From Selenomonadaceae bacterium (lineage in GTDB: Bacteria; Bacillota; Negativicutes; Selenomonadales; Selenomonadaceae), in the NCBI GenBank assembly GCA_016280345.1, contig JAEEGN010000226.1, positions 1 through 49,646 of the forward strand: a stretch of 49,646 nucleotides of DNA, in the 5' to 3' direction. This document shows, piece by piece, positions 24,989 through 49,646 of this stretch; the stretch's first letter is position 1, and the number at the start of each line of letters is the position of its first letter. The position numbers and the translations under genes are program-made. Below the pieces are notes generated by a model that was given only the letters and a program-made list of their open reading frames with translations, was not told the origin of the DNA and made no database searches.

Positions 24989-25048
24989 CGACAGGAGCTT
25001 TGAGGAGTGAAAATAACCCTTTTCAAGGGATAAAAGGGAGAACCGAGG

Positions 25049-26704
25049 ATGAGGCTTTTCAGTTATCGAACGCTGGCGCAGGCTATCACGATGACGGTAT
25101 TGGCCGGGACGTTCGCGGGAACGGCTTTGGCGGCGACTTCGCTGCCGGAGCCGGGGGGCGAGGTGAAGGAACAGCTCCCGCAGCCCGGAGCGGAAGTGGA
25201 GAGCAATCTGCCGCCGCCGCCACCGGAGACGACGGAAACGAAGTTCACGGTAAAATCGGTTGACCTCATGGCGCCTGAGCTTAAAGTGAACAAGGAGGCG
25301 CTGACGAAGATTCTGGAGCCGGCGCTGAACCGCGAAGTGACGTTGGCGGAGTTTAACGAAATTATCGACCAGCTTACGGTATATTGCCGGCAGCACGGCT
25401 ATCCGGCGGCGGCGGCGTATCTGCCGGCGCAGGACAGCGTGAACGGCGCGGTGACGATCAATATCATTCCCGGCCGGTACGGGAAGGTCATCATCGAGAA
25501 CCACAGCAAATTGAAGGAAGATATCATCCAGGGGTTCCTGAACGGGCTGAAGCAGGGTTCGATCATTCGCACGAAGGGACTGGAGACGGCGCTCTACGAG
25601 ATCAGTGAGCTTTCCGGCACGAAGGCGGTGGGCGTACTGAGTCCGGGAGAGTCTTTCGGTTCCAGCGATCTGACGGTCCGGGTGGAGGACGGCAAGCTGT
25701 CGAATACGGTGCTCTATACGGAGAACTACGGCAGCCGGTCGTCGGGACGTTACCGTTACGGCCTTCAGGAAACGCTGTACAACGTCGGCGGGACCGGCGG
25801 CAAACTGAACGTGGGCGGACTGATTTCGAACAATCATCTGCACAATTACTATCTGAACTATGAGACGCTGATTGGCCGCAGCGGGGCTACGCTGGGGCTG
25901 GGCGTCAGCCGGATGGACTATGAGCTGGGCGGTGCGGCGCAGGAGTTTGGCGCCAACGGCGTAGCGAATACGCTGAGCCTGTTCGGCTCGACACCGCTCT
26001 ACCACATGACGGACCGCCGGCTGAAGGTGACTTACGGGCTGGATTTCCGGCGGATGAAAGACGATTATAGCAAGTATTCGATTCTCGACCGCAAGAAGCA
26101 TTCGGAGGTCGCCCACGTGGGCATCGAGGGTTCCGAGAAGCATCCGGGCTCGCTGCTGAACTACGACGCGACGCTCTATGTGGGGCGTCATCATAACGAT
26201 TCGTCGTCATATGGCGGCAAGATTCTGGACGATCTCAGCGATACGCAGGGAACGTTCACGAAGCTGGTGGCGGATGTGACCGGCGTACAATCGCTGGGGC
26301 ACCGCGCCGACGTGATGGTGAAGCTCCAGGGGCAGGCGGCAAGTCGTAATCTCGACAGTTCGGAGCAGATTTACCTGGGCGGCGCCAACGGCGTGCGGGC
26401 GTATCCGCAGGGCGAAGGCTCCGGTGACAAAGGCTTCCTGGGAACAGCGGAGTTCCGATTCTATACGAATCTGCCGGGCCTGGTGCTGAGCGCCTACCTC
26501 GATGCCGGCCATGTGGCGGGCCGCGGTGACGGAACGCTCAACGGCGAGACGCTGAAGGGCTGGGGCCTGGGAATCAGCTACTCGAAGCCGAACGACTGGT
26601 TCGCCCGCTTCGACTATGCCCGTCGCATCGGCAGCGATCCGAACATGAGCAGCGATGCCAGGAGCAAGCAGAGAATGTGGTTTATCCTGGGCAAGATTTG
26701 GTAA
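25049..26704 (+). CDS. TpsB outer-membrane transporter (ShlB/FhaC/HecB family, POTRA + Omp85-type barrel)
   Basis: Signal peptide MRLFSYRTLAQAITMTVLAGTFAGTALA. POTRA-like region (LTVYCRQHGYPAAAAYLPAQDSVNGAVTINIIPGRYG). DLTVRVEDGK...YTENYGSRSSGRYRYG, and a C-terminal barrel ending in an aromatic residue (...FILGKIW). Confidence 0.9.
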   Translation: MRLFSYRTLAQAITMTVLAGTFAGTALAATSLPEPGGEVKEQLPQPGAEVESNLPPPPPETTETKFTVKSVDLMAPELKVNKEALTKILEPALNREVTLAEFNEIIDQLTVYCRQHGYPAAAAYLPAQDSVNGAVTINIIPGRYGKVIIENHSKLKEDIIQGFLNGLKQGSIIRTKGLETALYEISELSGTKAVGVLSPGESFGSSDLTVRVEDGKLSNTVLYTENYGSRSSGRYRYGLQETLYNVGGTGGKLNVGGLISNNHLHNYYLNYETLIGRSGATLGLGVSRMDYELGGAAQEFGANGVANTLSLFGSTPLYHMTDRRLKVTYGLDFRRMKDDYSKYSILDRKKHSEVAHVGIEGSEKHPGSLLNYDATLYVGRHHNDSSSYGGKILDDLSDTQGTFTKLVADVTGVQSLGHRADVMVKLQGQAASRNLDSSEQIYLGGANGVRAYPQGEGSGDKGFLGTAEFRFYTNLPGLVLSAYLDAGHVAGRGDGTLNGETLKGWGLGISYSKPNDWFARFDYARRIGSDPNMSSDARSKQRMWFILGKIW

Positions 26705-37422: not shown

Positions 37423-38160
37423 ATGAAAGATATGGATCTGCTGCGGGAGATGCTGACTTCGTCGGCCATGACGCCGGAGACGCCACGAGGGCAAGCGGCG
37501 CCTGTGCCACCGGAAAAACCCGTGCCACCGGACGCTACGCTCATTTCTTTGCCGGAGCCAGGGCTGTTGCCGGATATCCAGGTGAATTTCCTGGAAATGG
37601 TCGAACTTCGTGCCTCCATCCGCATTTACAGGGATAAAGCGGTTTCCCTCAAGGATTTGTCGTTTCTTCTCTGGTGTACGCAAGGTGTTAAAATGGCGAT
37701 GCCGTCCGGTGTGACCATGCGGAACGTCCCCTCGGCCGGGGCTTGCCACGCCTTCTCAACATATCTGCTGCTTCAGCGGATTGAGGGATTGACGCCGGGA
37801 CTTTACCGATTCCTGCCGCTGGAGCACGCCTTATATCCCGTACGTACCGGAGCGGAGGTCGTCACATCATTCCTGCCGGCCTTTCCCGCTACAGCCATGG
37901 TGGAGAAATGTGCTGCCGTCTTCCTTTGGTGCGCTGATTTCTCCCGAATGTCCGGCAAGTACGGTGCCCGGTCGCTGCGGTACCTCTTCCTCGATGCCGG
38001 TCATATCTGTCAGAATCTCTACCTCGCGGCCCAGGCCCTGCGGATCGGCGTTTGCGCTGTGGGCGCGTTCTATGACCAGGCGCTGAACAACGCTCTGGCA
38101 TTGGACGGGGAGAATGATTTTGTGGCCTATGCTGCTACAATCGGCTGGCCAGAGACCTGA
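37423..38160 (+). CDS. SagB/ThcOx-type nitroreductase-family (FMN) dehydrogenase
   Basis: LRASIRIYRDKAVSLKDLSFLLWCTQG, RNVPSAGACHAF, GLYRFLPLEHAL, LRYLFLDAGHICQNLYLAAQALRIGVCAVGAF. RBS GGAGGA sits 6 nt upstream. The start is 3 nt after the hisIE stop, so it is co-transcribed with the his operon. Confidence 0.75.
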   Translation: MKDMDLLREMLTSSAMTPETPRGQAAPVPPEKPVPPDATLISLPEPGLLPDIQVNFLEMVELRASIRIYRDKAVSLKDLSFLLWCTQGVKMAMPSGVTMRNVPSAGACHAFSTYLLLQRIEGLTPGLYRFLPLEHALYPVRTGAEVVTSFLPAFPATAMVEKCAAVFLWCADFSRMSGKYGARSLRYLFLDAGHICQNLYLAAQALRIGVCAVGAFYDQALNNALALDGENDFVAYAATIGWPET

Positions 38161-38229: not shown

Positions 38230-38502
38230 TCATTCATCCGGAAAGAACTCCTCCTCCCAAAGCCCATCAGTTAAGTATTTTTTGAGGAACAGCAGCAAAT
38301 CAACCGGTTTTAGCGAAGTATAACAAGAATAGTTCGTATTATGATAATGGATTTTTAGCATCCGGCCTGCGGCGGAAGAGGCGTACATAGAAATTCCCAC
38401 CGGGGTATCCGCTGACGAGATCATAATGACAAGCGGTACGGGGGCGTTGACGGAATGGGCGCATGTCGAAATCACAATCGACTCATGGAGAGAGGGGAAC
38501 AA
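38230..38502 (-). pseudogene. Possible C-terminal remnant of an alpha/beta-hydrolase-like gene
   Basis: The ORF tail APVPLVIMISSADTPVGISMYASSAAG...HYHNTNY...DLLLFLKKYL resembles the last strand-helix units of alpha/beta hydrolases (PvLii-G-x-D-x-vP ... H ... FL-kk). There is no plausible N-terminal domain, the segment is lower in GC, and it overlaps the next gene's leader. Confidence 0.25.
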
Positions 38503-38507
38503 ACGCC

Positions 38508-39461
38508 ATGAACGACAACTATTTCAATCAGGCGGCTCTCAACAAGATGCGTTCCCCGGAAAAACTCGATACGATGATCCGGATTACCGACCCGGTAAGC
38601 TGGATGGGTATGGCGTCTGTCACACTGCTCTGCTTCGCCATCGTACTTTGGTCGTTTTATGGTTCTTTTACGGAAAAAGCGGAAGGACGTGGCCTGATTC
38701 TGGATTCCGCCGGCGTCGTTAACGTGACGCATTCGGTCTCGGGAAAGATCACCGGAATTTTGGTTCATACGGGGGACAAGGTACATAAAGGACAGCTCAT
38801 CGCCCACATGGATCAGCCGGAACAATCGGCTGACACACGGATGGCGCAGTACGGAACGGAACTGGCAACGAATGACCGTGACGTAATGGGACGTGTTTAC
38901 CAGTACGACGCGAAGCGGCACCAGCAGGCGGCACGAGAGAATATTTACTGTGCGTATGACGGCGTAGTAGACGAGGTGATGGCTGCCGCCGGGGAAATTC
39001 TACAGGCAGGCAGTCCGATCTGTTCGGTGCGTTTAACGCAGAACCGTGATGATTTGACGGGCGTTTTCTATATTCCCGTGGATAAGGGCAAGCGCGTGGA
39101 ACCGGGGATGACAATCCAACTCGCCCCGAACGGTGTTGACGTAACGCAAACGGGCAGTTTGATCGGCGTAGTAAAAAGCGTGTCGCAATATCCGATTTCC
39201 GCCGAAGGCATACGAAAAGGGCTTGGCAACGCGCAACTTGCGCAATATGTGCTGACGCAGGACGGCGGTGCGGCGGTCGAGGTAAAATTCGACCTCGTGA
39301 AAGACGCCAGCTCGGATTCGGGCTACCTCTGGACCTCTGTCGTGGGGAAACATCGGCCGGTCACTGCGGGCAGTTTCTGCACCGGTTCCATCGTAATTGA
39401 GAGGGAACCGCCAATTGAGAAGGCATTCTATAAGATCAGCCAATGGCTGAGGAGCCGATAG
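38508..39461 (+). CDS. HlyD-family adaptor of an NHLP/Nif11-type bacteriocin export system
   Basis: MNDNYFNQAALNKMRSPEKLDTMIRITDPVSWMGMASVTLLCFAIVLW: the SPE-x-LD motif followed by a single TM helix is typical of this adaptor type. A biotinyl-lipoyl-like hairpin region follows (GKITGILVHTGDKVHKGQLIAHMD). ATG 38508 is preceded by GGAGAGAGGGG. Confidence 0.8.
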   Translation: MNDNYFNQAALNKMRSPEKLDTMIRITDPVSWMGMASVTLLCFAIVLWSFYGSFTEKAEGRGLILDSAGVVNVTHSVSGKITGILVHTGDKVHKGQLIAHMDQPEQSADTRMAQYGTELATNDRDVMGRVYQYDAKRHQQAARENIYCAYDGVVDEVMAAAGEILQAGSPICSVRLTQNRDDLTGVFYIPVDKGKRVEPGMTIQLAPNGVDVTQTGSLIGVVKSVSQYPISAEGIRKGLGNAQLAQYVLTQDGGAAVEVKFDLVKDASSDSGYLWTSVVGKHRPVTAGSFCTGSIVIEREPPIEKAFYKISQWLRSR

Positions 39462-39464
39462 CCT

Positions 39465-41684
39465 ATGGAATTCAAAGAAAAACTCCGGCAGTTCCTCTTC
39501 GGCCGGCAACGTGTGAAAACACCGACCGTCCTCCAGATGGAAGCGACGGAATGTGGAGCGGCTTCGCTTTCCATGGTGCTTGCCTATTACGGGAAATGGC
39601 TTCCCCTTGAGGTTTTGCGGCAGGAATGCGGCGTTACCCGTGATGGCGTGAACGCGAAGAACATTCTCCGCGCCGCGCGGCGGTTCGGCTGTGTAGCGAA
39701 AGGCTTTGCCGGTCGCCCCTACGTCCTTCGGGAGAAGGAATTTCCCCTGATTCTTTTTTGGGAGTTCAACCATTTCGTTGTCATGGAAGGAATCGAGGGT
39801 AACACGGTCTTTTTGAACGACCCGGCGTTGGGCCGGCGTAAGGTGACATGGGAGGACTTCCTCACTTCCTACACAGGTATCTATTTGAAAATCGTACCGG
39901 GAGAGGGATTCCGGCCTTCGGGACGGCAGTTCAGCGTCATGCAGGCGATGGTGGAAAAACTCGCCACCGATAAATGGGCAGTACTTTTCCTGGTAATCCT
40001 CGGACTTTGCATGATCATACCCGGGCTTGCCGTTCCGGTGATGAACCAGATCTTCATCGACGATGTCTTCTCGCTGAAGCATCCTGATTGGACCCAGAAA
40101 CTGCTATTCGCGATGGCTTCGGCGGCGGTGCTTGTCGGTGTCATGAGCGCGATGCGGGCTGCGGCACTGACCTATTGGAAGAGGAAACTGACGTTGTCGG
40201 ACTCTTCGTCGTTCTTCTGGCATGTTCTGCGTCTGCCCGTGGCTTTTTTCCAACAGCGGTACGCGGCAGATGTGGCTTCCCGTATCCAGTTCAACGAGGC
40301 GAATGCCGAAGTACTTTCCAACCAAGGAGCTACCGCCGTTCTCGACCTTTTCATCGCGCTGTTCTACCTCGGTCTCCTGATTCAGTACAGCGTTCCGCTG
40401 ACGCTGGTTGGCGTCTCTGTCAGCGTCGTCAACCTCTTGGTGCTTCTCTATATGCGGCGGAATATGACCGACCTCACAATGCGGATTCAGCAGGAAAAAG
40501 GCAAGGAATTTGGCGTCCTGATGGCTGGCATCATGATGATTGAAAGCATCAAAGCGACCGGCAGCGAGGACGAGCTTTTCGCAAAATGGGCCGGTTACTC
40601 CGGGAAAGTAATTGTTGCGAATCAGGAAATGCAGATTTGGTCGCTGAAAGTTCGACTCCTGCCTACGCTTTTGGCAGGTCTTTCGGGGGCGTTGGTCATG
40701 ACAGTAGGCGGCTTTTCCATCATGGAAGGAGCGATGACCGCCGGTGTCTATACGGCGGTGAACAGCCTGATCGAGAAGTTCCATGAACCGATGCAAAAGC
40801 TCTTGACTTTCAGCGATACGATCCGAACGGCAGAAATGCAGATGCAGCGCCTTGACGACGTGCGGCAATATAAAACAGACATCCTGAACTATCCCGATGA
40901 GACACAAACAATCACATTTAAAGGTGACCGCTTATCCGGCGAGATAACCATGAAAGATGTAAACTTCGGCTACAGTCCATTGGAACCGCCGCTCCTGGAG
41001 AATTTCCAACTCCATCTGGAGCCGGGGCGCTGGGCCGCCATCGTGGGCGCGTCGGGCAGTGGAAAATCGACGCTGGCAAAGCTCGTTGCCGGATTTTATG
41101 AGGAATGGTCGGGAGAAATTCTCTTCGATGGTGTGAAACGGCGTGAAATCCCCCGCCCGGTTATCGTCAATTCACTGGCCTCGGTAGATCAGGACGTTTT
41201 CCAAATCTCCGGGACGGTGCGAGAAAACATCTCGCTGTTCGACAGCTCCGTGCCAAAGGATGACATTATGCAGGCAGCGCAGGACGCCTGCATCGAAGAC
41301 GATATCCTGCGGCTCCCTGGCGGCTATGAAGCAGTGGTCTCTGAGGGCGGGCTGAATTTCAGCGGCGGCCAAAGGCAGCGGTTGGAGCTAGCCCGGGCAC
41401 TGGCAGGCAATCCATCCATCCTGATCCTCGACGAAGCGACCAGTGCCATTGACCCGATGACGGAACAGAAGTGCCTCGAAAACCTGCGACGGCGCGGTTG
41501 TACCTGCCTGTTTGTCGCTCATCGTCTGTCAACCATCCGCGACGCGGATGAAATCATCGTCCTGGAAAAAGGTAAGGTGGCAGAACGTGGCACGCATCGC
41601 GAACTGATGCAGAATAACGGCCCTTACTGCAGGTTGATTGAGGAAAACATGAACGAGGAAAAGGGTGACGAATCGCTGGATTAA
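39465..41684 (+). CDS. ABC transporter with N-terminal C39 double-glycine peptidase domain (peptidase/permease/ATPase)
   Basis: C39 catalytic residues in context: VLQMEATECGAASLSMVL, EFNHFVVMEG, FLNDPA. Six-TM ABC exporter domain. Walker A GASGSGKST, FSGGQRQR, ILILDEATSA. Confidence 0.9.
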   Translation: MEFKEKLRQFLFGRQRVKTPTVLQMEATECGAASLSMVLAYYGKWLPLEVLRQECGVTRDGVNAKNILRAARRFGCVAKGFAGRPYVLREKEFPLILFWEFNHFVVMEGIEGNTVFLNDPALGRRKVTWEDFLTSYTGIYLKIVPGEGFRPSGRQFSVMQAMVEKLATDKWAVLFLVILGLCMIIPGLAVPVMNQIFIDDVFSLKHPDWTQKLLFAMASAAVLVGVMSAMRAAALTYWKRKLTLSDSSSFFWHVLRLPVAFFQQRYAADVASRIQFNEANAEVLSNQGATAVLDLFIALFYLGLLIQYSVPLTLVGVSVSVVNLLVLLYMRRNMTDLTMRIQQEKGKEFGVLMAGIMMIESIKATGSEDELFAKWAGYSGKVIVANQEMQIWSLKVRLLPTLLAGLSGALVMTVGGFSIMEGAMTAGVYTAVNSLIEKFHEPMQKLLTFSDTIRTAEMQMQRLDDVRQYKTDILNYPDETQTITFKGDRLSGEITMKDVNFGYSPLEPPLLENFQLHLEPGRWAAIVGASGSGKSTLAKLVAGFYEEWSGEILFDGVKRREIPRPVIVNSLASVDQDVFQISGTVRENISLFDSSVPKDDIMQAAQDACIEDDILRLPGGYEAVVSEGGLNFSGGQRQRLELARALAGNPSILILDEATSAIDPMTEQKCLENLRRRGCTCLFVAHRLSTIRDADEIIVLEKGKVAERGTHRELMQNNGPYCRLIEENMNEEKGDESLD

Positions 41685-41812
41685 CGGCTCTTTACGCCGC
41701 CGGCGCAAAACCAAGATATATTTTTTCATCTCCCGGTTTCAATTCTTGAATCCGGGAGTGGTATTCGAATGCGGTTCCGTTTTTCCGCCACGACAGGAAG
41801 GAAGGACGCGCT

Positions 41813-44566
41813 ATGAAGCTTGCTGCCGGGGAACGGTTCCGGCTACCGGACGATAAAACATATATCAAAATTGTGGCGGGCCAGGCGGAAGCCTATGCGG
41901 TCACGAGGCAAAAAATCTCTTACCGCCAGATATTCTTGAAGGAATTGCCGGTCGGGGAAGCAGCTTTTCCGCCGATGGACGAATTTGATCAGATCGATAT
42001 CCTGGTTTACGCTGTCGAGGATTCCGAGATTGAGCTACAATCGCTTGCTGAAGCGGATCCCGTCATTCTGGCGCCGCTCATGAAGCAGTGGTTCGGGCGG
42101 CTTGTCGCTCTGCCATGGCTCAGCCTTTTAGCTGATCGTGGCGACGATGTGCTGAAGACATGGGCGGACGGTTCTGTCCTGAACAGCCGGGAGACGGACC
42201 TGGCGACGTTGCTGAATGCGTTTGCGGAGAATGAAGGCATTTTCGCTATGTTACTCGGCGTGCGATTCTCGTCGCAGGACAAGCGTCTCTCAACACGTAT
42301 GGAAAGTCGCGCCCGGCAACAAAGCCGTCTTGTGGACGAAACCATCGCAGCATTGCTGGAAGAAAAGGACGCCATAGAAGGCAGTTTTTCCGCGATGGGT
42401 GATGAAGCAGGCACTGGAAGCAAACGGGCCGAAGAGGCCGCGTTTCTCACACGCTGTGTCGCACAGGCTTTGAATATGCCGTTCCGGAATCTGCACATCA
42501 CAACGGATATGGCGAAAAAACATAATTCCCTCGCTTTGCTTCGGCGCTTTGTCCAGAAGTGCGGCATGCAGCTTCGGTCTGTCACCCTCGATCCGGGTTG
42601 GCAGACCGGAGATAGCGGCGTCATGCTTGGCTCCTTCATCGCCGACGACAATGAGAAAGAACTGGCCGCGCTGATACCCGATTCGCCAAAACACTATCGT
42701 CTCGTAACGCAATCGTATCCCGAGGGCATCCCACTCACGGACGAAGTCGCCGCGAGAATCGACCGGGAGGCGTTTCTCTGCTATCCGGGCCTTCCTGCGC
42801 GAAAGCTCTCGCTGGGGGATCTCCTTCGTTTCTTTTTCCGGCAAAGCTGGACGACGGATTGGAAAACAATCGCCATCGCCAGTTTCGTCACGGGATTGAT
42901 TCCGCTGATTACGCCCATTGTCACCGAGACGGTCTTCAAGGACATCATCCCGATCCTTGACCGGAAGGGTCTTGCCACTGTCACGCAAGTCATGATGGTG
43001 GCGGGTTTTACCACGGCAGCGCTAACCACCACGCGATCAGTTGCGTTCCTGCGCCTGTCCTCGGCGTGCGGAAAAACGCTACAGGCCGCTTTGATCATCC
43101 GTCTCTTTTCCCTGCCGGCGAAATTCTTCCGCCGCTTCCAGTCTGGCGACCTTGCCAACCGCTTGATGGGCTTCGAGGCGATCACGCTCCTCCTGTCGGA
43201 GAATGTCTTCGGGGGCATCTTCAACCTGGTGTTTTCCTTCTGGAGTCTCGGGCTGATGCTTTATTACAGCTTGAAGCTTACAGCAACGGCGCTGGGGATA
43301 TGGCTCATTTACCTCATTATCAGCGGCTTCATCATCAGCCGCCTTGTCCGCTCCCAACGGAAAATGACCGAGGCGAAAAACAAGACCGCCGGTATTTTGC
43401 AGCAGATTTTCACAGGACTTCAGAAATTCCGTGTAAAGGGAGCGGAGGAACAGGCCTACCATCTTTGGGGGGAAAAGTTCGCCGAGGAATGGAGATGGAA
43501 TTTCAGCGTTCGCTGGCTCACGAACTATAATACCGTCATCACCGCCGTCCAGCCGATCCTGCTGGCGCTGGCGCTATACTACGTCGGACTGAAGGAGCTT
43601 GCCGAAAACCCGGCAACGGGCGAAGCCGCAACGATACTCTCAGAAACGTTCAGCCCGGCGGAGCCTCTGACAGTCGCTAAATTCATCGCGTTCCAGGCGG
43701 CATACTCCGCATTCAACGTGTCCCTGAACGCCGTCATGCCAATCTTGGAACAGTTTGCCGCCGTCCGGCCGCTGTTCGAGAATCTTCAGCCTATCCTCGA
43801 CACGGAGCCGGAAGCCGCTGAAGAAAAAAAAGAAGCCGGCTTGCTCTCCGGGACAATTGAGGCAAGGCATCTGACCTTTTCCTATGGTGAGGGATTGCCG
43901 GAGGTGCTGCATGACGTGAGCTTCCGCGTAGCGGCGGGAGAGCATCTGGCCATTGTCGGACCGTCCGGCTGCGGCAAATCCACGCTTGTGCGGTTACTCC
44001 TCGGCTTTGAATCGCCGGCCAGTGGTGCCGTCTATTACGACGGGCAGGACCTGGCCGACCTCGACCTTCCCTCCGTGCGCTCTCAGATGGGCGTGGTGTT
44101 GCAAAACGGCCAACTGATGACCGGAGACATCTATCGGAATATCGCCGGGACCAGCGACCTGACGCTGGACGATGCCTGGGCGGCAGCGGAAGCGGCTGGC
44201 GTCGCCAACGACATCCGCGAAATGCCAATGCAGATGCAGACGGTCATCAGCGAAGGCAGCACGAACATTTCCGGTGGTCAGCGGCAGCGCATCCTGATTG
44301 CCAGAGCGCTTGCCATGAAGCCCTCTATCATCATCTGTGACGAGGCGACCAGCGCCCTGGACAACCGTACCCAATCCATCGTAACCGCCAGTCTCGACCA
44401 GCTGAAAGTGACACGTGTTGTCATTGCACACCGTCTCTCGACCATCCGTCACGCTGACCGCATTCTTGTCCTCAATGAAGGCCGTATCGAAGAGATTGGA
44501 ACGTTTGACGAACTGATCGCGAAGGATGGTCTCTTCGCATCGTTTGTCAAACGGCAAGTAGCGTAG
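41813..44566 (+). CDS. Second ABC exporter (permease/ATPase) with a non-peptidase N-terminal extension (cNMP-binding-like)
   Basis: 917 aa. N-terminal roughly 150 aa: RFRLPDDKTYIKIVAGQAEAYAV...IDILVYAVEDSEIE. A central segment aligned to the position of a C39 domain lacks the catalytic Cys context. TM domain, GPSGCGKST, ISGGQRQR, IIICDEATSA. Confidence 0.85.
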   Translation: MKLAAGERFRLPDDKTYIKIVAGQAEAYAVTRQKISYRQIFLKELPVGEAAFPPMDEFDQIDILVYAVEDSEIELQSLAEADPVILAPLMKQWFGRLVALPWLSLLADRGDDVLKTWADGSVLNSRETDLATLLNAFAENEGIFAMLLGVRFSSQDKRLSTRMESRARQQSRLVDETIAALLEEKDAIEGSFSAMGDEAGTGSKRAEEAAFLTRCVAQALNMPFRNLHITTDMAKKHNSLALLRRFVQKCGMQLRSVTLDPGWQTGDSGVMLGSFIADDNEKELAALIPDSPKHYRLVTQSYPEGIPLTDEVAARIDREAFLCYPGLPARKLSLGDLLRFFFRQSWTTDWKTIAIASFVTGLIPLITPIVTETVFKDIIPILDRKGLATVTQVMMVAGFTTAALTTTRSVAFLRLSSACGKTLQAALIIRLFSLPAKFFRRFQSGDLANRLMGFEAITLLLSENVFGGIFNLVFSFWSLGLMLYYSLKLTATALGIWLIYLIISGFIISRLVRSQRKMTEAKNKTAGILQQIFTGLQKFRVKGAEEQAYHLWGEKFAEEWRWNFSVRWLTNYNTVITAVQPILLALALYYVGLKELAENPATGEAATILSETFSPAEPLTVAKFIAFQAAYSAFNVSLNAVMPILEQFAAVRPLFENLQPILDTEPEAAEEKKEAGLLSGTIEARHLTFSYGEGLPEVLHDVSFRVAAGEHLAIVGPSGCGKSTLVRLLLGFESPASGAVYYDGQDLADLDLPSVRSQMGVVLQNGQLMTGDIYRNIAGTSDLTLDDAWAAAEAAGVANDIREMPMQMQTVISEGSTNISGGQRQRILIARALAMKPSIIICDEATSALDNRTQSIVTASLDQLKVTRVVIAHRLSTIRHADRILVLNEGRIEEIGTFDELIAKDGLFASFVKRQVA

Positions 44567-44620: not shown

Positions 44621-45139
44621 ATGTCCCCCGCGACTATTTCCTGTCCGTTGGATTTCGAGTCGATCTACCGGAAGTATCATAAAAGGGTTTACAACTATAT
44701 TTACGGGCAGATTCTGCAACGCGAGGCGGCCGAGGACCTGGCGGCGGATGTGTTCGTCGCGGTGGCGACGAATCTGGGACGCTTCGACCCAACGCGGGGA
44801 TCGTTTTCTATATGGCTTTTTACCATTGCCAGGAATTTGACGCAAAATTATCGCCTGCGAGCCTCAAACCGGCTGGAGGAAACTCGCGAGGAACTGCCCG
44901 AACGTTTTGCCGATCCTCCGAAAGAGCAGGACGAGTCCTTGCGCATTCCCGAGAATGCACGGACAGAGCGTATTTTAACCCAGCTTTCCAACGAGGAACG
45001 GAGTTTTTTGGAGTATCGCTATGTGCTTGATCTTTCCAACGAAGAGATAGGGCGGCTCATTGGGACGTCGGCAGCCACTGTCAGCCAGCGTTATCATCGT
45101 CTGCTGGCGAAGTGCCGGAAAATTGATCGGAACGAATGA
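44621..45139 (+). CDS. Sigma-70 family (ECF-like) RNA polymerase sigma factor
   Basis: Region 2 (IYRKYHKRVYNYIYGQILQREAAEDLAADVFVAV, FSIWLFTIARNLTQNY) and region 4 HTH (LSNEERSFLEYRYVLDLSNEEIGRLIGTSAATVSQRYHRLLAKCR). Confidence 0.85.
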   Translation: MSPATISCPLDFESIYRKYHKRVYNYIYGQILQREAAEDLAADVFVAVATNLGRFDPTRGSFSIWLFTIARNLTQNYRLRASNRLEETREELPERFADPPKEQDESLRIPENARTERILTQLSNEERSFLEYRYVLDLSNEEIGRLIGTSAATVSQRYHRLLAKCRKIDRNE

Positions 45140-45252: not shown

Positions 45253-45546
45253 ATGGCGGACAAGATTGTGGGCAGTGAAAATGATATGACGCGCATCGAG
45301 GAGATGGACATGCTTTTTCGCTCAGCGGATTTCTCCGCTGAAAGCGCCGGTCTTGCCGAGAGGCTTTGGGTAAAAATACGGTCGCGGCTGACAGCACGGA
45401 GACAGGACTTCGTGTCTCCCGCGGAAGAATTCGAGCTTTCCGAGGTCGATCTTTTTGAGGTTGCAGCGGCCGGCTCGCCGGACGAACAGCTCCAGAAATG
45501 TCTGGATCGTAGCCAATACCCGACACTCAGTGGCAGTGGTGTATGA
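45253..45546 (+). CDS. 97-aa acidic hypothetical protein (soluble anti-sigma-like or leader-peptide-like)
   Basis: GAGG lies 8 nt upstream of ATG 45253. It occupies the position usually held by an anti-sigma factor, but has no TM helix and no zinc-finger motif. It contains ...EEFELSEVDLFEVAAAGSPDEQLQKC... Confidence 0.5.
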   Translation: MADKIVGSENDMTRIEEMDMLFRSADFSAESAGLAERLWVKIRSRLTARRQDFVSPAEEFELSEVDLFEVAAAGSPDEQLQKCLDRSQYPTLSGSGV

Positions 45547-45981
45547 GACCTTCGCTATTCCGAAAGACGAGACGCGCATAACTTCATGAATGATGGCCAC
45601 AGCTTTCTGAATGAGTGTTCTCATCAGGAAAAATTGCTATGCGGTTGACGGCTGTGCGATAAAGTGCGGTTCGATGGACTGAACAGAGTTATAATTGGGA
45701 ATACTTGGTCAGATGTAAAACGACGTTCCCGGATATCCAGAAACGTGTGAAGACAGAAAAAAGTGGTATGAATATCTTAATCATCAATATTTGACAAGGT
45801 GGCGAATGGCAGGTGCCATTCCGAGTGCAGCTGGGATAAATGGATACCACTTTAAGGATACGTTGAGCCAGTCCCCACGAAAGAATTGAATCCGTTATGA
45901 AGCGCGGGGATTCCAAGAAAACCATGGCCGGCTGGTTTGCCATAACGATTAACGAAAGCAAAACGACAAAGGAGAGAAAAC

Positions 45982-47598
45982 ATGAGAATCAGCACCTATG
46001 AGATCATCCTGCCGCTGATCGGCCAGGAGGACAAAAAGATTGAGGGGAAAACGCTGCTGGTGAACGGCCTGTATGGCGCGTTGGACGTGGTGGACACGAA
46101 GATAGCTGAAAAGCTCGAAAAGGAAGACTTCGCGGGCATCCCCTTTTCGCTGCGGGAGCGGCTCACGGTGCGCGGCCATATCACGCGAAAGGACGAGGCG
46201 GGCGAGCTGGCAGACGCGCGCCTTATAGGCCGCGTCTGGAACAAGCTGGTGGGCCACGCCGGTACCGGCCCGGTCATCCTGCCTACCTACAACTGCAATT
46301 TCCGTTGCCCGTACTGCTTTGAGCGCCATCGGCTTACCCGCGGACAAGAATGGCTCGGTCATGAGATGAAGCCGGAGATGGTGGAGGCGGTCTTTGCCGC
46401 ACTCCAAAAGCAGAAGGACAAAGGTCATAAGATCGACAACGTCTCGCTCTACGGCGGCGAACCGCTCTTGAAGGAAAACAAGGAGACGGTCAGGAATATC
46501 TGCGAGCATGCAAAGGCGATGGGGCTCGGCCTTTCCGGCATCACCAACGGCTACGACTTAGACTCGTATGTTGATCTTCTGAAAGAATTTGAGTTCTCCC
46601 AGTTGCAAATCACGGTGGACGGCGTGGGCGTGCTGAATGATCGTCGCCGCCTGCATCGGGACGGCGTGCCGACTTACGACAAGATTCTGCAAAACGCGAA
46701 ACTGGCCCTCGACCACGGCGTCGACGTGAACCTCAGGGTGAACACGAACGGTGAGAACATCGGCGGCGTCAAGGCATTGATTGACGATTTGGCAGCCCGG
46801 GGACTTCGTGAAGCCACGCAGGAAGAACGGGATAAAGCGTATCAGGAAGAGCAGGAAGCGAAGAAGGCAGGAAAGCCGAAACCGGAGCGCAAAGGCTTTT
46901 TCAGCTATTATTTCAAAGCAGTGTCGGAGGATGCCGATTCACCGACCAAGGTGACGGAGCGGCAGGTACTGGACGCGTTGCTCGCGGCGGGTATTCCGCC
47001 GTTGGAGGCCATCGGGAAGCAAAGCCAGTATTCGATTCCCATGCAGGGGCTTTCAGCCGCCATGAAGAAAGATGACTATCCGAGCTTTTCCCCGGCTTTC
47101 TGCGGCGCGGAGCAGGGCATGTTGTGCATCGCCCCCGACGGACAGCTCTTTTCCTGTTGGGACCTCGTGGCGAAGGACGAGGACGCCGTGGGCTTCACCG
47201 ACAAAGAGGCGGGCCGGTTCTTCTTCAATTTTACGAAAGCGAAATGGCGTACTCGCACCTCGGACCTGATGAAGCCCTGCCAGACCTGCCCGTACATTTT
47301 CATCTGCCGGGGTGGCTGCGCGCCGGAGGCGTATCGGACGCATGGCAGCTACTTTCGCGAAAACTGCGGCGAGGCAAAGGAGATTTTCGCATATGTCGCC
47401 CCCCGCGTTGTCGGAAAAAAGTGGGAGGCGACAAAGGAGGACGAGCTTTCCATCTCACTGACGGGGCCGTTGGCGAGGTTCACGGAAAAGGAACGTGAGA
47501 CGCTGATGAGAACTACAAGCCAGCAGGAAATGTTCGGTATTATCAAGCAAGCGGGCTTTTTTTTCTCAGAAACAAGCGAGGAAAAGAAGGACGCATAA
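45982..47598 (+). CDS. Radical SAM / SPASM-domain peptide maturase
   Basis: CX3CX2C at PTYNCNFRCPYCFE. SAM-binding GGEPLL. SPASM Cys pattern FCGAEQGMLCIAPDGQLFSC ... CQTCPYIFICRGGCAPEA (CX2CX5CX3C). A roughly 100-aa pre-domain sits where RRE-type leader-binding domains occur. Confidence 0.9.
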   Translation: MRISTYEIILPLIGQEDKKIEGKTLLVNGLYGALDVVDTKIAEKLEKEDFAGIPFSLRERLTVRGHITRKDEAGELADARLIGRVWNKLVGHAGTGPVILPTYNCNFRCPYCFERHRLTRGQEWLGHEMKPEMVEAVFAALQKQKDKGHKIDNVSLYGGEPLLKENKETVRNICEHAKAMGLGLSGITNGYDLDSYVDLLKEFEFSQLQITVDGVGVLNDRRRLHRDGVPTYDKILQNAKLALDHGVDVNLRVNTNGENIGGVKALIDDLAARGLREATQEERDKAYQEEQEAKKAGKPKPERKGFFSYYFKAVSEDADSPTKVTERQVLDALLAAGIPPLEAIGKQSQYSIPMQGLSAAMKKDDYPSFSPAFCGAEQGMLCIAPDGQLFSCWDLVAKDEDAVGFTDKEAGRFFFNFTKAKWRTRTSDLMKPCQTCPYIFICRGGCAPEAYRTHGSYFRENCGEAKEIFAYVAPRVVGKKWEATKEDELSISLTGPLARFTEKERETLMRTTSQQEMFGIIKQAGFFFSETSEEKKDA

Positions 47599-47679
47599 AT
47601 GCCTTTTGCCGTGAGGTCTTATGTATGGCAGTCCAGTCCCGAGGGCTGCCCTAAACACACGATGGACAACTGCTCATAA
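47599..47679 (+). pseudogene. 26-codon ORF resembling a truncated core peptide (MPFAVRSYVWQSSPEGCPKHTMDNCS)
   Basis: It starts on the nucleotide after the rSAM stop and in the same frame. SYVWQSSPEGCPKH resembles VYWSNCPGEGTCGHH of the intact precursor. No leader is present. Confidence 0.35.
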
Positions 47680-47700
47680 TAAATAGGGGATGTTTTATTT

Positions 47701-47823
47701 TTGGCAGACAAACTCAAAGGAAAAAACATCTCGAAGGAACAGCTCGAGAAAGCGATCAAGTGCAAAACCGCCGACAAACTGTTGCGGCGGCGAAATCCGA
47801 GGTTTTTCGATCTGACGAAGTAA
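47701..47823 (+). pseudogene. Nif11-like N-terminal leader half, separated from the downstream precursor ORF by an in-frame TAA
   Basis: A TTG-initiated frame reads LADKLKGKNISKEQLEKAIKCKTADKLLRRRNPRFFDLTK*, in the same frame as ATG 47839. An alternative frame over 47784-47805 reads VAAAKSEVF, suggesting compensating frameshifts. Confidence 0.4.
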
Positions 47824-47838
47824 GAAGCTGAGGCGTGC

Positions 47839-47985
47839 ATGGCGGAGCTGGCAGACTTCAAGCTGGATGATGAGATGCTGAATAAAGCGGCCGGGGGCGT
47901 TTACTGGTCAAATTGCCCGGGTGAGGGAACCTGCGGCCACCACGTCTGCGGAATTGTAGGCTGGGAGAACTTCAAGGGATGCTGA
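47839..47985 (+). CDS. 48-aa RiPP precursor peptide with a double-glycine leader and a 4-Cys core
   Basis: MAELADFKLDDEMLNKAAGG | VYWSNCPGEGTCGHHVCGIVGWENFKGC. SD TGAGG sits 5 nt upstream. It lies 240 nt downstream of the rSAM/SPASM gene and in a locus with a C39-peptidase exporter. It is below the 60-aa cutoff of the ORF track. Confidence 0.7.
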   Translation: MAELADFKLDDEMLNKAAGGVYWSNCPGEGTCGHHVCGIVGWENFKGC

Positions 47986-48127
47986 TCCGTAGAAAGGTTT
48001 TATCTATAGCAACAAGTTACAAGGAAGCGTTCACGAAAGAACAACGCAAAGATCGCCAATGAGTTTCCGGCATTGGCAAAGTCTGATATAAAAGCCGCCT
48101 GTTGGTTTATCCCATAGCGGCTATTAT

Positions 48128-48301
48128 ATGCAGAAATTCCTGAAGCGAATATCTTGGGTGTACATGGCTGAGCTCAATGGCTTCGAACTGGATGACGAAG
48201 TGATTTAGGCTTTGACGGACGGCATGAAGACCCGATATATTGTGGATGGTTGCTCCTTCAAGTGCGGTACATTAGAGAACTTGTTGACGAATCATGGCTG
48301 A
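48128..48301 (+). pseudogene. Second precursor paralogue interrupted by an in-frame TAG
   Basis: MQKFLKRISWVYMAELNGFELDDEVI*ALTDGMKTRYIVDGCSFKCGTLENLLTNHG*. MAELNGFELDDEV parallels MAELADFKLDDEM. The stop is at 48206-48208, and the GG motif is replaced by DG. Confidence 0.45.
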
Positions 48302-48311
48302 ACGGAAAAAT

Positions 48312-48340
48312 AAGGTAAGATTATCTTACCTTATTTTTCT
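48312..48340 (+). terminator. Intrinsic terminator closing the precursor region
   Basis: AAGGTAAGA-tta-TCTTACCTT followed by ATTTTTCT. Confidence 0.8.
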
Positions 48341-48517
48341 TATTATAGCAGTTTCGAAACGCAGGAAACGCCATCATGAGACGAACGAGAGGAAAGCGTA
48401 AGTACGGAGTGAAATGGCATAATTGCTTGCCGCCGCTCTGCAGCGTCGTTCTATTCCACTGTAAGGCTATAATGAAATCGCCTCTGTCAAAGCGGAAAAC
48501 AAGGAAAGGGAACTGCC

Positions 48518-49646
48518 ATGCGAAAAGAGTTTCTTGTCGTTAACGAAGCGAATTTTAATGAATCGGCGGACCGGATTCGCGAGGCGCTGGTGGAACGAAG
48601 GGTTACTGAACGGGAAATCAGCTGGGCATCGCTGCTCTTTGAGGAGATTTTTTACCGCGCACGGGGCATGGGTGTAGAAGAAATGCGCGTGGTCATCCAG
48701 AACCGTCTCGGGGATTTAAGCCTGCAGCTTTCCTTTGACGGCGAGGAGAAAAATCCCCTCATGGATGTCGCTGCTTTAGACGAGAACGACATAGAAACAT
48801 ACCGCACGCTGATTTTGAAGGCGAACAGAGACAAGCTTAGCTATGAGCGCTGGAATGGGGAGAATCTTGTACTCGTTGCCGTCCATCGTTCGGAGCGAAA
48901 GCAGATTTTCTATTTGCTGGCGGCGATGGTGCTTGGTATCATGTTCGGCGAACTGATGAAAGCGTTCGCTTCCCCCGAGACCTTGCAATTCTTCGACGAG
49001 GCTGTAGTCAAGAGTGTCCGCACAATTTTCTTGAACGCTCTGAGCTTAATGATTGCGCCGGTGGTTTTTTTCAGCATCATCAACGGTGTCACGAGCATGA
49101 GAGACGTTGCCGAGGTGGGACGGATTGGCGGCAAATTGATCGGTCTTTATTTGTTTACGACCGTCATCGCTGCCGTTGCCAGTATCGCTCTCGGGTACGC
49201 GCTCTTCAGCGGGGAAATCCCGCAAATCGGCTCCATCGATGAGACAGCGAGGGGCGCGGCACCAAACGTTTCCTTTCTGGCGATGATTGTCGGCGTTGTG
49301 CCGAAAAATTTCATCGATCCTATTCTCAAGGGAGATATGCTACAAATCATTTTTATCGCATTGATCTGCGGCATCTGCATTACGAAACTGGGAAAATCTG
49401 TTCAAATTCTTGTTCAAATCATTGCAGCGCTTAACACGCTTTTCTTGCACGTGGTAACAATGATTGCCTTTTTCATCCCGCTGATTGCCTTCCTGTCCAT
49501 GGTTTCCCTGATTATTCATATGGGCTTCGATTCGTTGCAGTTCATGGGACGGATGCTCTTGGGGCAAATCATCGGCAGCCTCTTAATGCTGATAGTCTAC
49601 AGCGGAATCATCCGCTTCGTCGGCGGATTGTCGCCCCTTCCGTTTC
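48518..49646 (+). CDS. Dicarboxylate/amino acid:cation symporter (DAACS) family transporter with a roughly 125-aa N-terminal cytoplasmic extension (3' end outside the window)
   Basis: Not in the ORF track because it runs off the window. ATG 48518 follows AAGGAAAGGG. The frame is open to 49646. DAACS motifs are present (VRTIFLNALSLMIAPVVFFSIINGVTSM, GRIGGKLIGLYLFTTVIAA, VVPKNFIDPILKGDMLQIIFIALICGI). Confidence 0.8.
   Translation, partial: MRKEFLVVNEANFNESADRIREALVERRVTEREISWASLLFEEIFYRARGMGVEEMRVVIQNRLGDLSLQLSFDGEEKNPLMDVAALDENDIETYRTLILKANRDKLSYERWNGENLVLVAVHRSERKQIFYLLAAMVLGIMFGELMKAFASPETLQFFDEAVVKSVRTIFLNALSLMIAPVVFFSIINGVTSMRDVAEVGRIGGKLIGLYLFTTVIAAVASIALGYALFSGEIPQIGSIDETARGAAPNVSFLAMIVGVVPKNFIDPILKGDMLQIIFIALICGICITKLGKSVQILVQIIAALNTLFLHVVTMIAFFIPLIAFLSMVSLIIHMGFDSLQFMGRMLLGQIIGSLLMLIVYSGIIRFVGGLSPLPF

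Follow-up and report, generated by a model that had tools for sequence, protein, structure and literature searches.

The stretch of DNA analyzed here (the window) comprises 49,646 nucleotides from a Selenomonadaceae bacterium (contig JAEEGN010000226.1 of assembly GCA_016280345.1, positions 1 to 49,646, forward strand). Near its 3′ end lies a 48-codon open reading frame (ORF) that runs on the plus strand from an ATG at 47839 to a TGA at 47983 to 47985 and whose direct translation is MAELADFKLDDEMLNKAAGGVYWSNCPGEGTCGHHVCGIVGWENFKGC. The original prediction regarded this ORF as a native, self-contained precursor of a ribosomally synthesized and posttranslationally modified peptide (RiPP), with a 20-aa double-glycine leader, its own Shine-Dalgarno (SD) sequence, and a four-cysteine core. 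The coordinates, the translation, and the TGAGG motif 5 nt upstream were confirmed, as were the four Cys, two Trp, and adjacent His pair of the core and the GG with which the leader ends. Comparison with homologous genes indicates, however, that the ORF is probably the 3′ tail of a decayed, nonfunctional copy of a longer precursor gene of about 94 codons, with a Nif11-type leader and a core of the kind that we term type B. The features on which this reading depends are the following.

47701 to 47838, plus strand: upstream leader remnant, LADKLKGKNISKEQLEKAIKCKTADKLL...DLTK(stop)EAEAC, corresponding to the N-terminal two-thirds of a Nif11-like leader, in the same frame as the ORF
47783 to 47810, plus strand: −1/+1 frameshift pair; the gene frame reads RRRNPRFF and the shifted frame AAAKSEVF, against a consensus of ALAKAEGF
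47821 to 47823, plus strand: in-frame TAA nonsense codon within the most conserved leader block, K-[ED]-E-A-E-A-Y
47829 to 47833, plus strand: SD-like TGAGG, 5 nt 5′ of the ATG at 47839
47839 to 47985, plus strand: the ORF under study, consisting of a leader remnant, a type B core, and TGA
47839 to 47898, plus strand: leader remnant MAELADFKLDDEMLNKAAGG, the first 20 codons of the ORF
47860 to 47862, plus strand: leader position −13, AAG (Lys); Glu in 20/20 aligned homologues (column 54)
47899 to 47982, plus strand: type B core VYWSNCPGEGTCGHHVCGIVGWENFKGC, 28 aa, with 4 Cys, 2 Trp, and an HH pair
47902 to 47904, plus strand: core position 2, TAC (Tyr); TGC or TGT (Cys) in every other type B sequence seen

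C39-peptidase-containing ABC transporters (PCATs) recognize leaders with GG at −2/−1 and hydrophobic residues at −4, −7, and −12 (PMC10885120). The last 20 leader residues of the ORF carry this pattern as A-4, L-7, L-12, and GG; AAGG immediately precedes the core, and AGG at this place is invariant across the family described below. When the 48-mer was compared with hidden Markov models (HMMs), as the original prediction had proposed for the leader, it matched no curated model on its own: no NCBIfam family was reached even at an E value of ≤10 and no Pfam family at ≤0.01, and the bacteriocin leader models TIGR01847, PF10439, and TIGR03949 did not match. A homologous-protein search with the 48-mer as the query returned only the 48-mer itself, and a PDB search with the core gave no match. 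Folding around the start codon revealed no special structure (z = 0.3), and a consensus promoter scan found nothing beyond a weak 9/12 site at 47652 to 47680. On two public metagenome contigs, which come from different samples, gene calling did pick up the exact 48-aa product, contrary to the expectation that default gene callers would miss it.

Relatives were collected by scanning one genome per species with the radical S-adenosylmethionine (rSAM) protein encoded just upstream of the ORF, which gave ten loci at 70 to 85% identity, mostly in metagenome-assembled genomes of Selenomonadales or Acidaminococcaceae and one in Succiniclasticum ruminis DSM 9236 (relative loci fetched for comparison are labeled L001, L003, and so on). 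The precursor genes 3′ of the relatives' rSAM genes are intact. One kind, type A, has the form MAKQLKREELTKEMVKKALRCKDADELLALAKSEGYEMTREEAEAYMAEINDFQLDDEAMKAVAGG-VKTCYMVDGCAFKCGTLKDC; the second precursor gene of L003 is of type B, MAKIETLTKEQLLKAAACKTTDELMKVAKTEGVELTKDEAEAYLAELADVELDDELLKKAAGG-VCWTNCPKEAECPGHVCGTVGWENFKGC, and is plainly a homologue of the ORF in the window. Metagenomes were then scanned with an alignment of the 48-mer and its 48 counterpart residues from the L003 type B gene, which added 40 further loci, all from rumen samples. By tblastn, about 30 core-bearing rumen metagenome loci proved homologous to the ORF, with E values down to 4e-23, well beyond what a chance reading frame would give. 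The tblastn search suggested with the original prediction thus revealed a conserved family, of which the window holds a degenerate copy.

Intact type B genes are present at about 25 of these loci and encode proteins of 91 to 97 aa, in which a Nif11-like leader of 63 to 66 aa is followed by a 28-aa core with five cysteines (consensus VCWxNCPxExxCxHHVCGTVGWENFKGC). An HMM of the family, built without the window sequence, gave the ORF 78 bits. The median pairwise ratio of nonsynonymous to synonymous substitution rates (dN/dS) in the type B family was 0.11, which indicates that the family is under purifying selection and genuinely coding. All 20 family members tested matched the Nif11-like leader model TIGR03798 at an E value of ≤0.01 (best, 1.9e-8), although individually scored leaders mostly fell just below its cutoff (best, 31.2 versus 32.3 bits). 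One type A homologue exceeded the Pfam Nif11 cutoff (26.1 versus 23.8), and the family profile matched PDB entry 9zn4, a Nif11 domain protein (E = 4e-4). Among 71 distinct leaders, conservation was high at all 64 consensus positions and peaked at EEAEAY. Because conservation extends along the whole leader, its N-terminal two-thirds, absent from the ORF in the window, would seem to be functionally needed.

The missing part of the leader is still present upstream of the ORF. The DNA at 47670 to 48000 aligned collinearly and ungapped to the intact L003 gene, and tblastn with the L003 type B protein matched 47716 to 47982 straight across the stop codon (61% identity over 89 aa; E = 1.8e-32). Read in the frame of the ORF, the sequence is ...LADKLKGKNISKEQLEKAIKCKTADKLLRRRNPRFFDLTK(stop)EAEAC-MAELADF.... 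The remnant at 47701 to 47838 alone scored 29.9 bits against the family HMM (E = 1.5e-10) and 41.6 bits once the frameshift pair, which was located by three-frame translation and DNA alignment, had been repaired. The repaired full-length gene scored 21.2 bits against TIGR03798 (E = 2.6e-4; curated cutoff, 32.3). The presumed native 20-aa leader is accordingly the last third of a 63- to 66-aa Nif11-like leader, since the homologous leader continues 5′ of the ATG at 47839; rather than forming one domain of about 60 to 70 aa in the same ORF as the core, the Nif11-like part at 47701 to 47838 is severed from it by the TAA and the frameshift pair.

Each of the other landmarks also has an ancestral counterpart. 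The ancestral start codon is AAA in the window and ATG in L003, and only a TTG at 47701 is left. In the column of the TAA (column 41), the other family members have Glu (11 sequences) or Asp (8 sequences), encoded by GAA, GAG, or GAC. The ATG at 47839 aligns with an internal leader position that is Met in most homologues (...EAEAYMAEL...) and Met or Leu across about 25 of them. The residue just 5′ of this ATG is Cys in place of the Tyr of EAEAY, which was found in 19/19 others. The TGAGG lies within the conserved GAG-GCG (Glu-Ala) codons, where L003 has GCCGAGGCG at the same columns; because it is part of an ancestral coding block, it is not a dedicated ribosome-binding site, and the SD sequence and start codon of the original prediction resolve into conserved EAEAY codons and a conserved internal Met codon. 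Finally, the four-cysteine core turned out to be a five-cysteine core minus one. Core position 2 is Cys in 21/21 other aligned sequences and in six further database representatives (P0002 to P0007), and its replacement by Tyr (VYW for VCW) abolishes the first Cys of the C-[WY]-x-x-C motif.

Taken together, the data show that intact family members encode a leader of 63 to 66 aa ending in GG and a 28-aa five-Cys core and that the whole gene is still collinear in the window. The N-terminal 45 codons of the leader are inactivated by the AAA at the ancestral start, the −1/+1 frameshift pair, and the TAA in the EEAEAY block, leaving an ORF that begins at the conserved internal Met. Because 44 conserved leader residues and one core Cys have been lost, this copy would give no normal product and at most a crippled peptide. 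The conserved part of the leader is normally required by the maturases of such families. In the intact relatives, the ribosomally made precursor would undergo leader-guided cross-linking of core Cys residues by an rSAM/SPASM enzyme (of the thioether type, by analogy with CteB and the ranthipeptides), followed by cleavage after GG and export by a C39 ABC transporter with an HlyD adaptor. The machinery, being intact, presumably acts on precursor genes elsewhere in this genome, beyond the window. A tidy short ORF with a GG leader near RiPP enzymes can thus be the tail of a broken longer gene, and here upstream in-frame sequence and homologues decide.

The ORF is flanked by further precursor remnants and by the genes of a maturation and export system.

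38463 to 39461, plus strand: HlyD-type secretion adaptor of an NHLP bacteriocin system (TIGR03794, 241 bits versus a cutoff of 156)
39465 to 41684, plus strand: NHLM-type C39-peptidase ABC exporter, a PCAT (TIGR03796, 962.6 bits versus a cutoff of 853.3; Peptidase_C39, E = 1e-31)
41813 to 44566, plus strand: second NHLM-type ABC exporter subunit (TIGR03797, 743.9 bits versus a cutoff of 709.4)
44621 to 45139, plus strand: extracytoplasmic function (ECF) sigma factor
45253 to 45546, plus strand: conserved 97-aa ORF directly after the ECF sigma factor gene, with no family match
45629 to 45682, plus strand: leaderless type A-like core remnant, KNCYAVDGCAIKCGSMD(stop), upstream of the rSAM gene (E = 1.7e-6)
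45982 to 47598, plus strand: intact rSAM/SPASM peptide maturase of 538 aa, clade 1 (PF04055, E = 4.5e-21; TIGR04085 SPASM, E = 1.6e-13)
47641 to 47664, plus strand: possible trace of a third core type, EGCPKHTM, compared with ICYMEDCPKHTMAD in L001 and L003 (7/8 identical; E = 0.01, a weak match)
48000 to 48301, plus strand: type A pseudogene, ...YMAELNGFELDDEVI(stop)ALTDG-MKTRYIVDGCSFKCGTLENLLTNHG(stop) (E = 1e-8)
48304 to 48340, plus strand: strong hairpin followed by a T run (−22.8 kcal/mol; z = −7.6; 0/200 shuffles fold as well)

At least two further precursor remnants lie on either side of the rSAM gene. The adjoining precursor genes are wrecked, whereas the rSAM and exporter genes are intact. 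Aligned with the intact type A genes of L001, L003, L005, and L009, the type A pseudogene proved to be without a start codon, to carry insertions of 31 nt and 9 nt and a TAG in the leader, to have lost two of four Cys, and to end in a read-through tail. The distance from the 97-aa ORF to the rSAM gene is 436 nt in the window versus about 4.6 kb in L001, where the interval is filled by three nonprecursor genes and then three intact precursor genes. The nonprecursor genes (L001:1464-4586) encode an FAD-dependent oxidoreductase, a metallophosphoesterase, and a PTP-like phytase-type phosphatase; the window has lost all three. The hairpin at 48304 to 48340 is likely the terminator that closes the rSAM-precursor transcription unit. 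On its 3′ side, a 55-aa ORF contains GVKWHNC (48406 to 48426), whose weak likeness to the GVCWxNC of type B cores (E, about 0.9) is probably due to chance.

Damaged and aberrant copies of type B were also found at other loci. An exhaustive HMMER search of 1.84 billion cluster representatives gave only nine matches, the six closest being aberrant or truncated type B copies, so the core is rare and broken copies of it recur. A stranded type B fragment at L054:3094-3294, made up of a 13-aa leader tail, the core, and a read-through tail, lies between nucleoside deoxyribosyltransferase and acetyltransferase genes, far from any RiPP gene; its core (VCWDNCPGEGTCGHKFCG...) has a PGEGTCGH stretch in common with the window copy. 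A decayed copy with a stop within the core lies directly 5′ of a clade 2 rSAM gene at L040:7998-8078, and L041 and L042 hold fragments of the core tail (VCGHHVCGTVGWENFKGCRQMI). A natural short-leader type B precursor was found at L053:454-612 (ENA ERZ27274624 k141_265464). Its 24-aa leader, MAMINKNEITKEQLEKAL-ENVAGG, precedes the core VCWSNCPTEASCNQDVCGTVGWENFKGC, has an in-frame deletion of about 40 leader residues, and is served by a good AAGGAG SD sequence; the HH of the core is replaced by QD. This gene lies 36 nt downstream of the stop codon of a partial rSAM gene, the visible C-terminal part of which resembles the window enzyme. As judged from these loci, precursor turnover seems common in the family.

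The rSAM enzyme contains CNFRCPYC (CX3CX2C) and a SPASM CX2CX5CX3C motif and shows 69 to 85% identity to its orthologues. The nearest solved structure was the thermocellin thioether synthase CteB (5WGG; E = 2.9e-12), and the best NCBIfam matches were Cys-rich-peptide maturases (CefB, TIGR04463, Clo7bot, and PapB), all far under their cutoffs. No characterized equivalog was reached, the scores being 128 bits versus a cutoff of 600 for CefB, 106 versus 525 for TIGR04463, 86 versus 340 for PapB, and 55 versus 425 for SCIFF; TIGR04064 (rSAM_nif11) gave 60 bits versus 519. By analogy with these enzymes, thioether-type cross-linking of core Cys residues may be its chemistry.

The rSAM enzymes of the fetched loci fall into several clades. 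Clade 1 contains the enzymes of the window, L001, L003, L008, and L009 (69 to 94% mutual identity); clade 2, with about 51 to 56% identity to clade 1, contains L033a, L034, L037a, L039, and L040a; and L033b represents a third clade. In seven loci, a clade 1 gene is immediately followed by a type A gene, and in five (L033, L034, L037, L039, and L040), a type B gene immediately precedes a clade 2 gene. In L003, L028, and L030, a type A gene stands between a clade 1 gene and the type B gene 3′ of it, and type B is directly 3′ of the rSAM gene in the window (clade 1) and in L053 (partial gene). Because the arrangement of type B and rSAM genes varies by clade among loci, the pairing of the window core with the adjacent enzyme appears uncertain; the paralogous rSAM gene that usually adjoins type B cores is absent from the window. 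The original prediction was supported in part: the DNA does code for a RiPP precursor beside a C39 exporter and an rSAM/SPASM gene, but this rSAM clade normally pairs with type A. As a further observation, a 640-aa B12-binding radical SAM protein that may be an additional tailoring enzyme is encoded directly 3′ of the type A precursor at L005:7993-9915 and is also found in L006 and L009, and it is absent from the window.

The C39 peptidase domain that the original prediction placed at 39465 to 41684 was borne out, with its catalytic residues Gln24, Cys30, His103, and Asp119 all kept, and together with the HlyD adaptor and the second ABC protein it forms a complete NHLM export association at 38463 to 44566. 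The rSAM, sigma factor, and exporter genes are full length and 70 to 86% identical to their orthologues. The 97-aa ORF occupies the same position in L001, L002, L005, L008, and L018 (42 to 51% identity); its C-terminal part (EEFELSEVDLFEVAAAG) is leader-like in look, and it could be an anti-sigma or regulatory peptide. Upstream of the export genes are hisF and hisIE (plus strand, to 37420) and, between hisIE and the HlyD adaptor gene, a SagB-like nitroreductase gene at 37423 to 38160 (plus strand; SagB-family peptide dehydrogenase domain, TIGR03605, 130.6 bits versus a cutoff of 78.4); no YcaO or cyclodehydratase gene is in the window, and no homologue of this nitroreductase gene was found in the related loci. 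On the other side, the precursor region is flanked by a gene of the sodium:dicarboxylate symporter family whose product is extended at its N terminus by about 130 aa (48518 to 49645, running off the end). The same gene stands immediately 5′ of precursor genes at L033:5909-7552 (type A-like, then type B) and L034:6167-7810 (type B). At 16226 to 26704, a 2,920-aa ORF followed by a gene for a ShlB/FhaC-type transporter with a POTRA domain makes up a two-partner secretion pair. Such pairs are typical of diderm bacteria, and this one fits a Negativicutes host.

Several observations weigh against decay. The 48-codon frame is intact, four of five Cys are kept, the C-terminal half of the core (HHVCG.VGWENFKGC) is fully conserved, and the complete PCAT motif (A-4, L-7, L-12, and GG) is present. 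The spacing of the SD-like GAGG from the ATG would be workable, and the TAA is just 15 nt upstream, close enough for translation reinitiation after it to be conceivable. Within the 49.6-kb window no intact precursor gene is visible, yet none of the maturase and exporter genes is damaged, so that a substrate of some kind is presumably still produced. The existence of the 24-aa-leader variant with a good SD sequence at L053, directly 3′ of an rSAM gene, means that short leaders are not unthinkable in this family. The dN/dS between the window copy and its closest homologue was 0.30, against the family median of 0.11, although the sequence is short and pairwise values cannot resolve recent relaxation. 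The pairwise Nei-Gojobori estimates against 19 homologues were saturated at synonymous sites and so neither date nor prove relaxed selection along the window branch.

Several of these observations speak for a truncated but still working gene, and among the alternatives to a decayed copy we take this one most seriously, unlikely as we hold it to be. The 48-aa product would be translated from its own GAGG and ATG or by reinitiation, recognized by the C39 exporter through its −4/−7/−12/GG motif, cleaved, and secreted unmodified or partly modified, as a minimal-leader derivative of the Nif11 type. Besides the preserved frame and PCAT motif, the intact C39 catalytic residues and rSAM and exporter genes, and the natural occurrence of the L053 variant, it counts in favor that the ORF is the only surviving core-bearing ORF beside the rSAM gene. 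However, a universally kept Cys and an invariant leader Glu have both been lost, 44 strongly conserved leader residues are gone, and the SD-like sequence and ATG are inherited coding features rather than evolved signals; L053, unlike the window copy, retains a true start and all five Cys. The narrower claim that the ORF is a functioning minimal-leader precursor processable by the C39 exporter alone is, in our estimation, doubtful. If true, nature would here have whittled a Nif11-type leader down to the PCAT recognition helix.

Polymorphism among near-identical assemblies seemed at first sight to favor a working ORF. Two independent assemblies, L051 and L052, whose contigs are those on which the 48-aa product was called, are 99.7 to 99.8% identical to the window at 47486 to 49397. 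The window differs from them at five positions, three of which (47697, 47792, and 47803) lie within the 125 nt of broken leader (Fisher P = 0.009), whereas the ORF shows zero polymorphisms among the three. The type A pseudogene is likewise free of polymorphism. Since an evident pseudogene shows the same lack of variation and repeats may have introduced assembly noise, this pattern was rejected as a sign of constraint on the ORF. Neutral drift, gene conversion from paralogous leaders, and assembly noise in repeated sequence are possible causes of the clustered differences in the leader remnant.

That the ORF is a native, self-contained 48-aa precursor, with a 20-aa double-glycine leader in the style of class II bacteriocins and modification by the adjacent rSAM enzyme, appears highly improbable. 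Its GG motif, its acidic and hydrophobic leader pattern, and the nearby C39 and rSAM genes make it attractive, but the intact homologues all reach 43 to 46 codons further upstream and the window keeps that very sequence in broken form. In addition, the 48-mer finds no match among double-glycine leader HMMs or other curated models, and the adjacent rSAM clade co-occurs with type A cores. A sequencing or assembly artifact, in which the stop and frameshifts would be errors and the real gene, of about 94 codons, would be intact, is just as hard to credit: the frameshift pair does lie in a GCGGCGGCG / T5 stretch of a kind that is error prone on some platforms, but L051 and L052, from different samples, share both the TAA and the frameshifted stretch with the window, the lesions go beyond homopolymer indels to two substitutions (TAA and TAC) and a missing start, and the adjoining precursor copies are far more heavily degraded. 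Stop-codon readthrough and an alternative genetic code were rejected, since this genome uses TAA as a stop elsewhere (the rSAM gene, for instance, ends in one) and neither would do away with the frameshift pair; given the shared lesions and this use of TAA, assembly error and recoding are both unlikely.

The decayed copy belongs to a large precursor library. In rumen Selenomonadales and Acidaminococcales, one Nif11-like leader is joined to at least 55 Cys-rich cores and accompanied by several uncharacterized rSAM/SPASM clades and an NHLM exporter. The fetched loci held 55 distinct cores behind about 71 distinct, highly similar leaders, some of them in tandem arrays of up to 8 to 10 genes, and some arrays lie far from any maturase gene; most of the 55 core types open with C-[YW]-x-x-(x)-C. 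The library turns over frequently and includes intact, short-leader, truncated, and stranded copies. Within this otherwise hypervariable collection, the type B core is unusually conserved, which suggests that it may have a specific activity. For expression, intact homologues (those of L014 or L033, for instance) would be far preferable to the window copy. In a related arrangement (L001:4608-5312, and at about 5022 in L008), a Nif11-like leader and a Cys-rich core (SCYTNMTCDGNECNPAHPH) are fused in frame to a Hint/intein-like domain that begins with CFTGDSEV (Pfam Hint, E = 1.3e-7; Hint_2, E = 2e-6), and the fusion is a RiPP-style precursor with a self-splicing-type module.

The type of system is known, with its Nif11-like leader, NHLM export, and rSAM/SPASM maturase, whereas the subfamily and the type B core are undescribed in the literature searched, where neither the core motif nor Nif11 together with rSAM in rumen organisms or Selenomonadales led to any account of this family. 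Independently of the window copy, type B and its sister C-[YW]-x-x-C cores may constitute an uncharacterized class of rSAM-modified RiPPs in rumen Negativicutes, with at least three dedicated rSAM/SPASM clades and a prochlorosin-like core library.

Nif11-like leader precursors (TIGR03798/PF07862) with NHLM export (TIGR03794/03796/03797) were defined by Haft, Basu and Mitchell 2010, as cited in PMC10885120. The family described here shares with them a GG-terminated leader of about 64 aa homologous to Nif11, a multiplicity of paralogous precursors in which one leader precedes diverse cores, and an HlyD adaptor, C39 ABC protein, and second ABC protein, all above curated cutoffs in the window. It differs in that the window copy is truncated and broken, in that its leaders mostly score just under the TIGR03798 cutoff, in its host, a rumen Negativicute rather than a cyanobacterium or proteobacterium, and in its rSAM/SPASM maturases, which reach no curated equivalog. 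With class II bacteriocins and other PCAT substrates (ComC/ComA and LahA/LahT), the ORF shares the GG, the hydrophobic residues at −4, −7, and −12, and a C39 peptidase with catalytic Cys and His; in contrast, its 20-aa "leader" is a fragment of a longer one and matches no bacteriocin-leader HMM. Ranthipeptides and sactipeptides (thermocellin CteA/CteB, freyrasin PapA/PapB, and SCIFF) likewise combine Cys-rich cores with an rSAM/SPASM maturase that has an N-terminal extension, but the leaders here are Nif11-like rather than short as in CteA and PapA, and the cores carry C-[YW]-x-x-(x)-C rather than CxxxD/N repeats; the cross-links here are predicted ones. Prochlorosin-type libraries offer a parallel in design, with one leader type, many cores, and scattered arrays. 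Their maturase, however, is a LanM lanthipeptide synthetase, whereas the library described here is associated with rSAM/SPASM enzymes of at least three clades.

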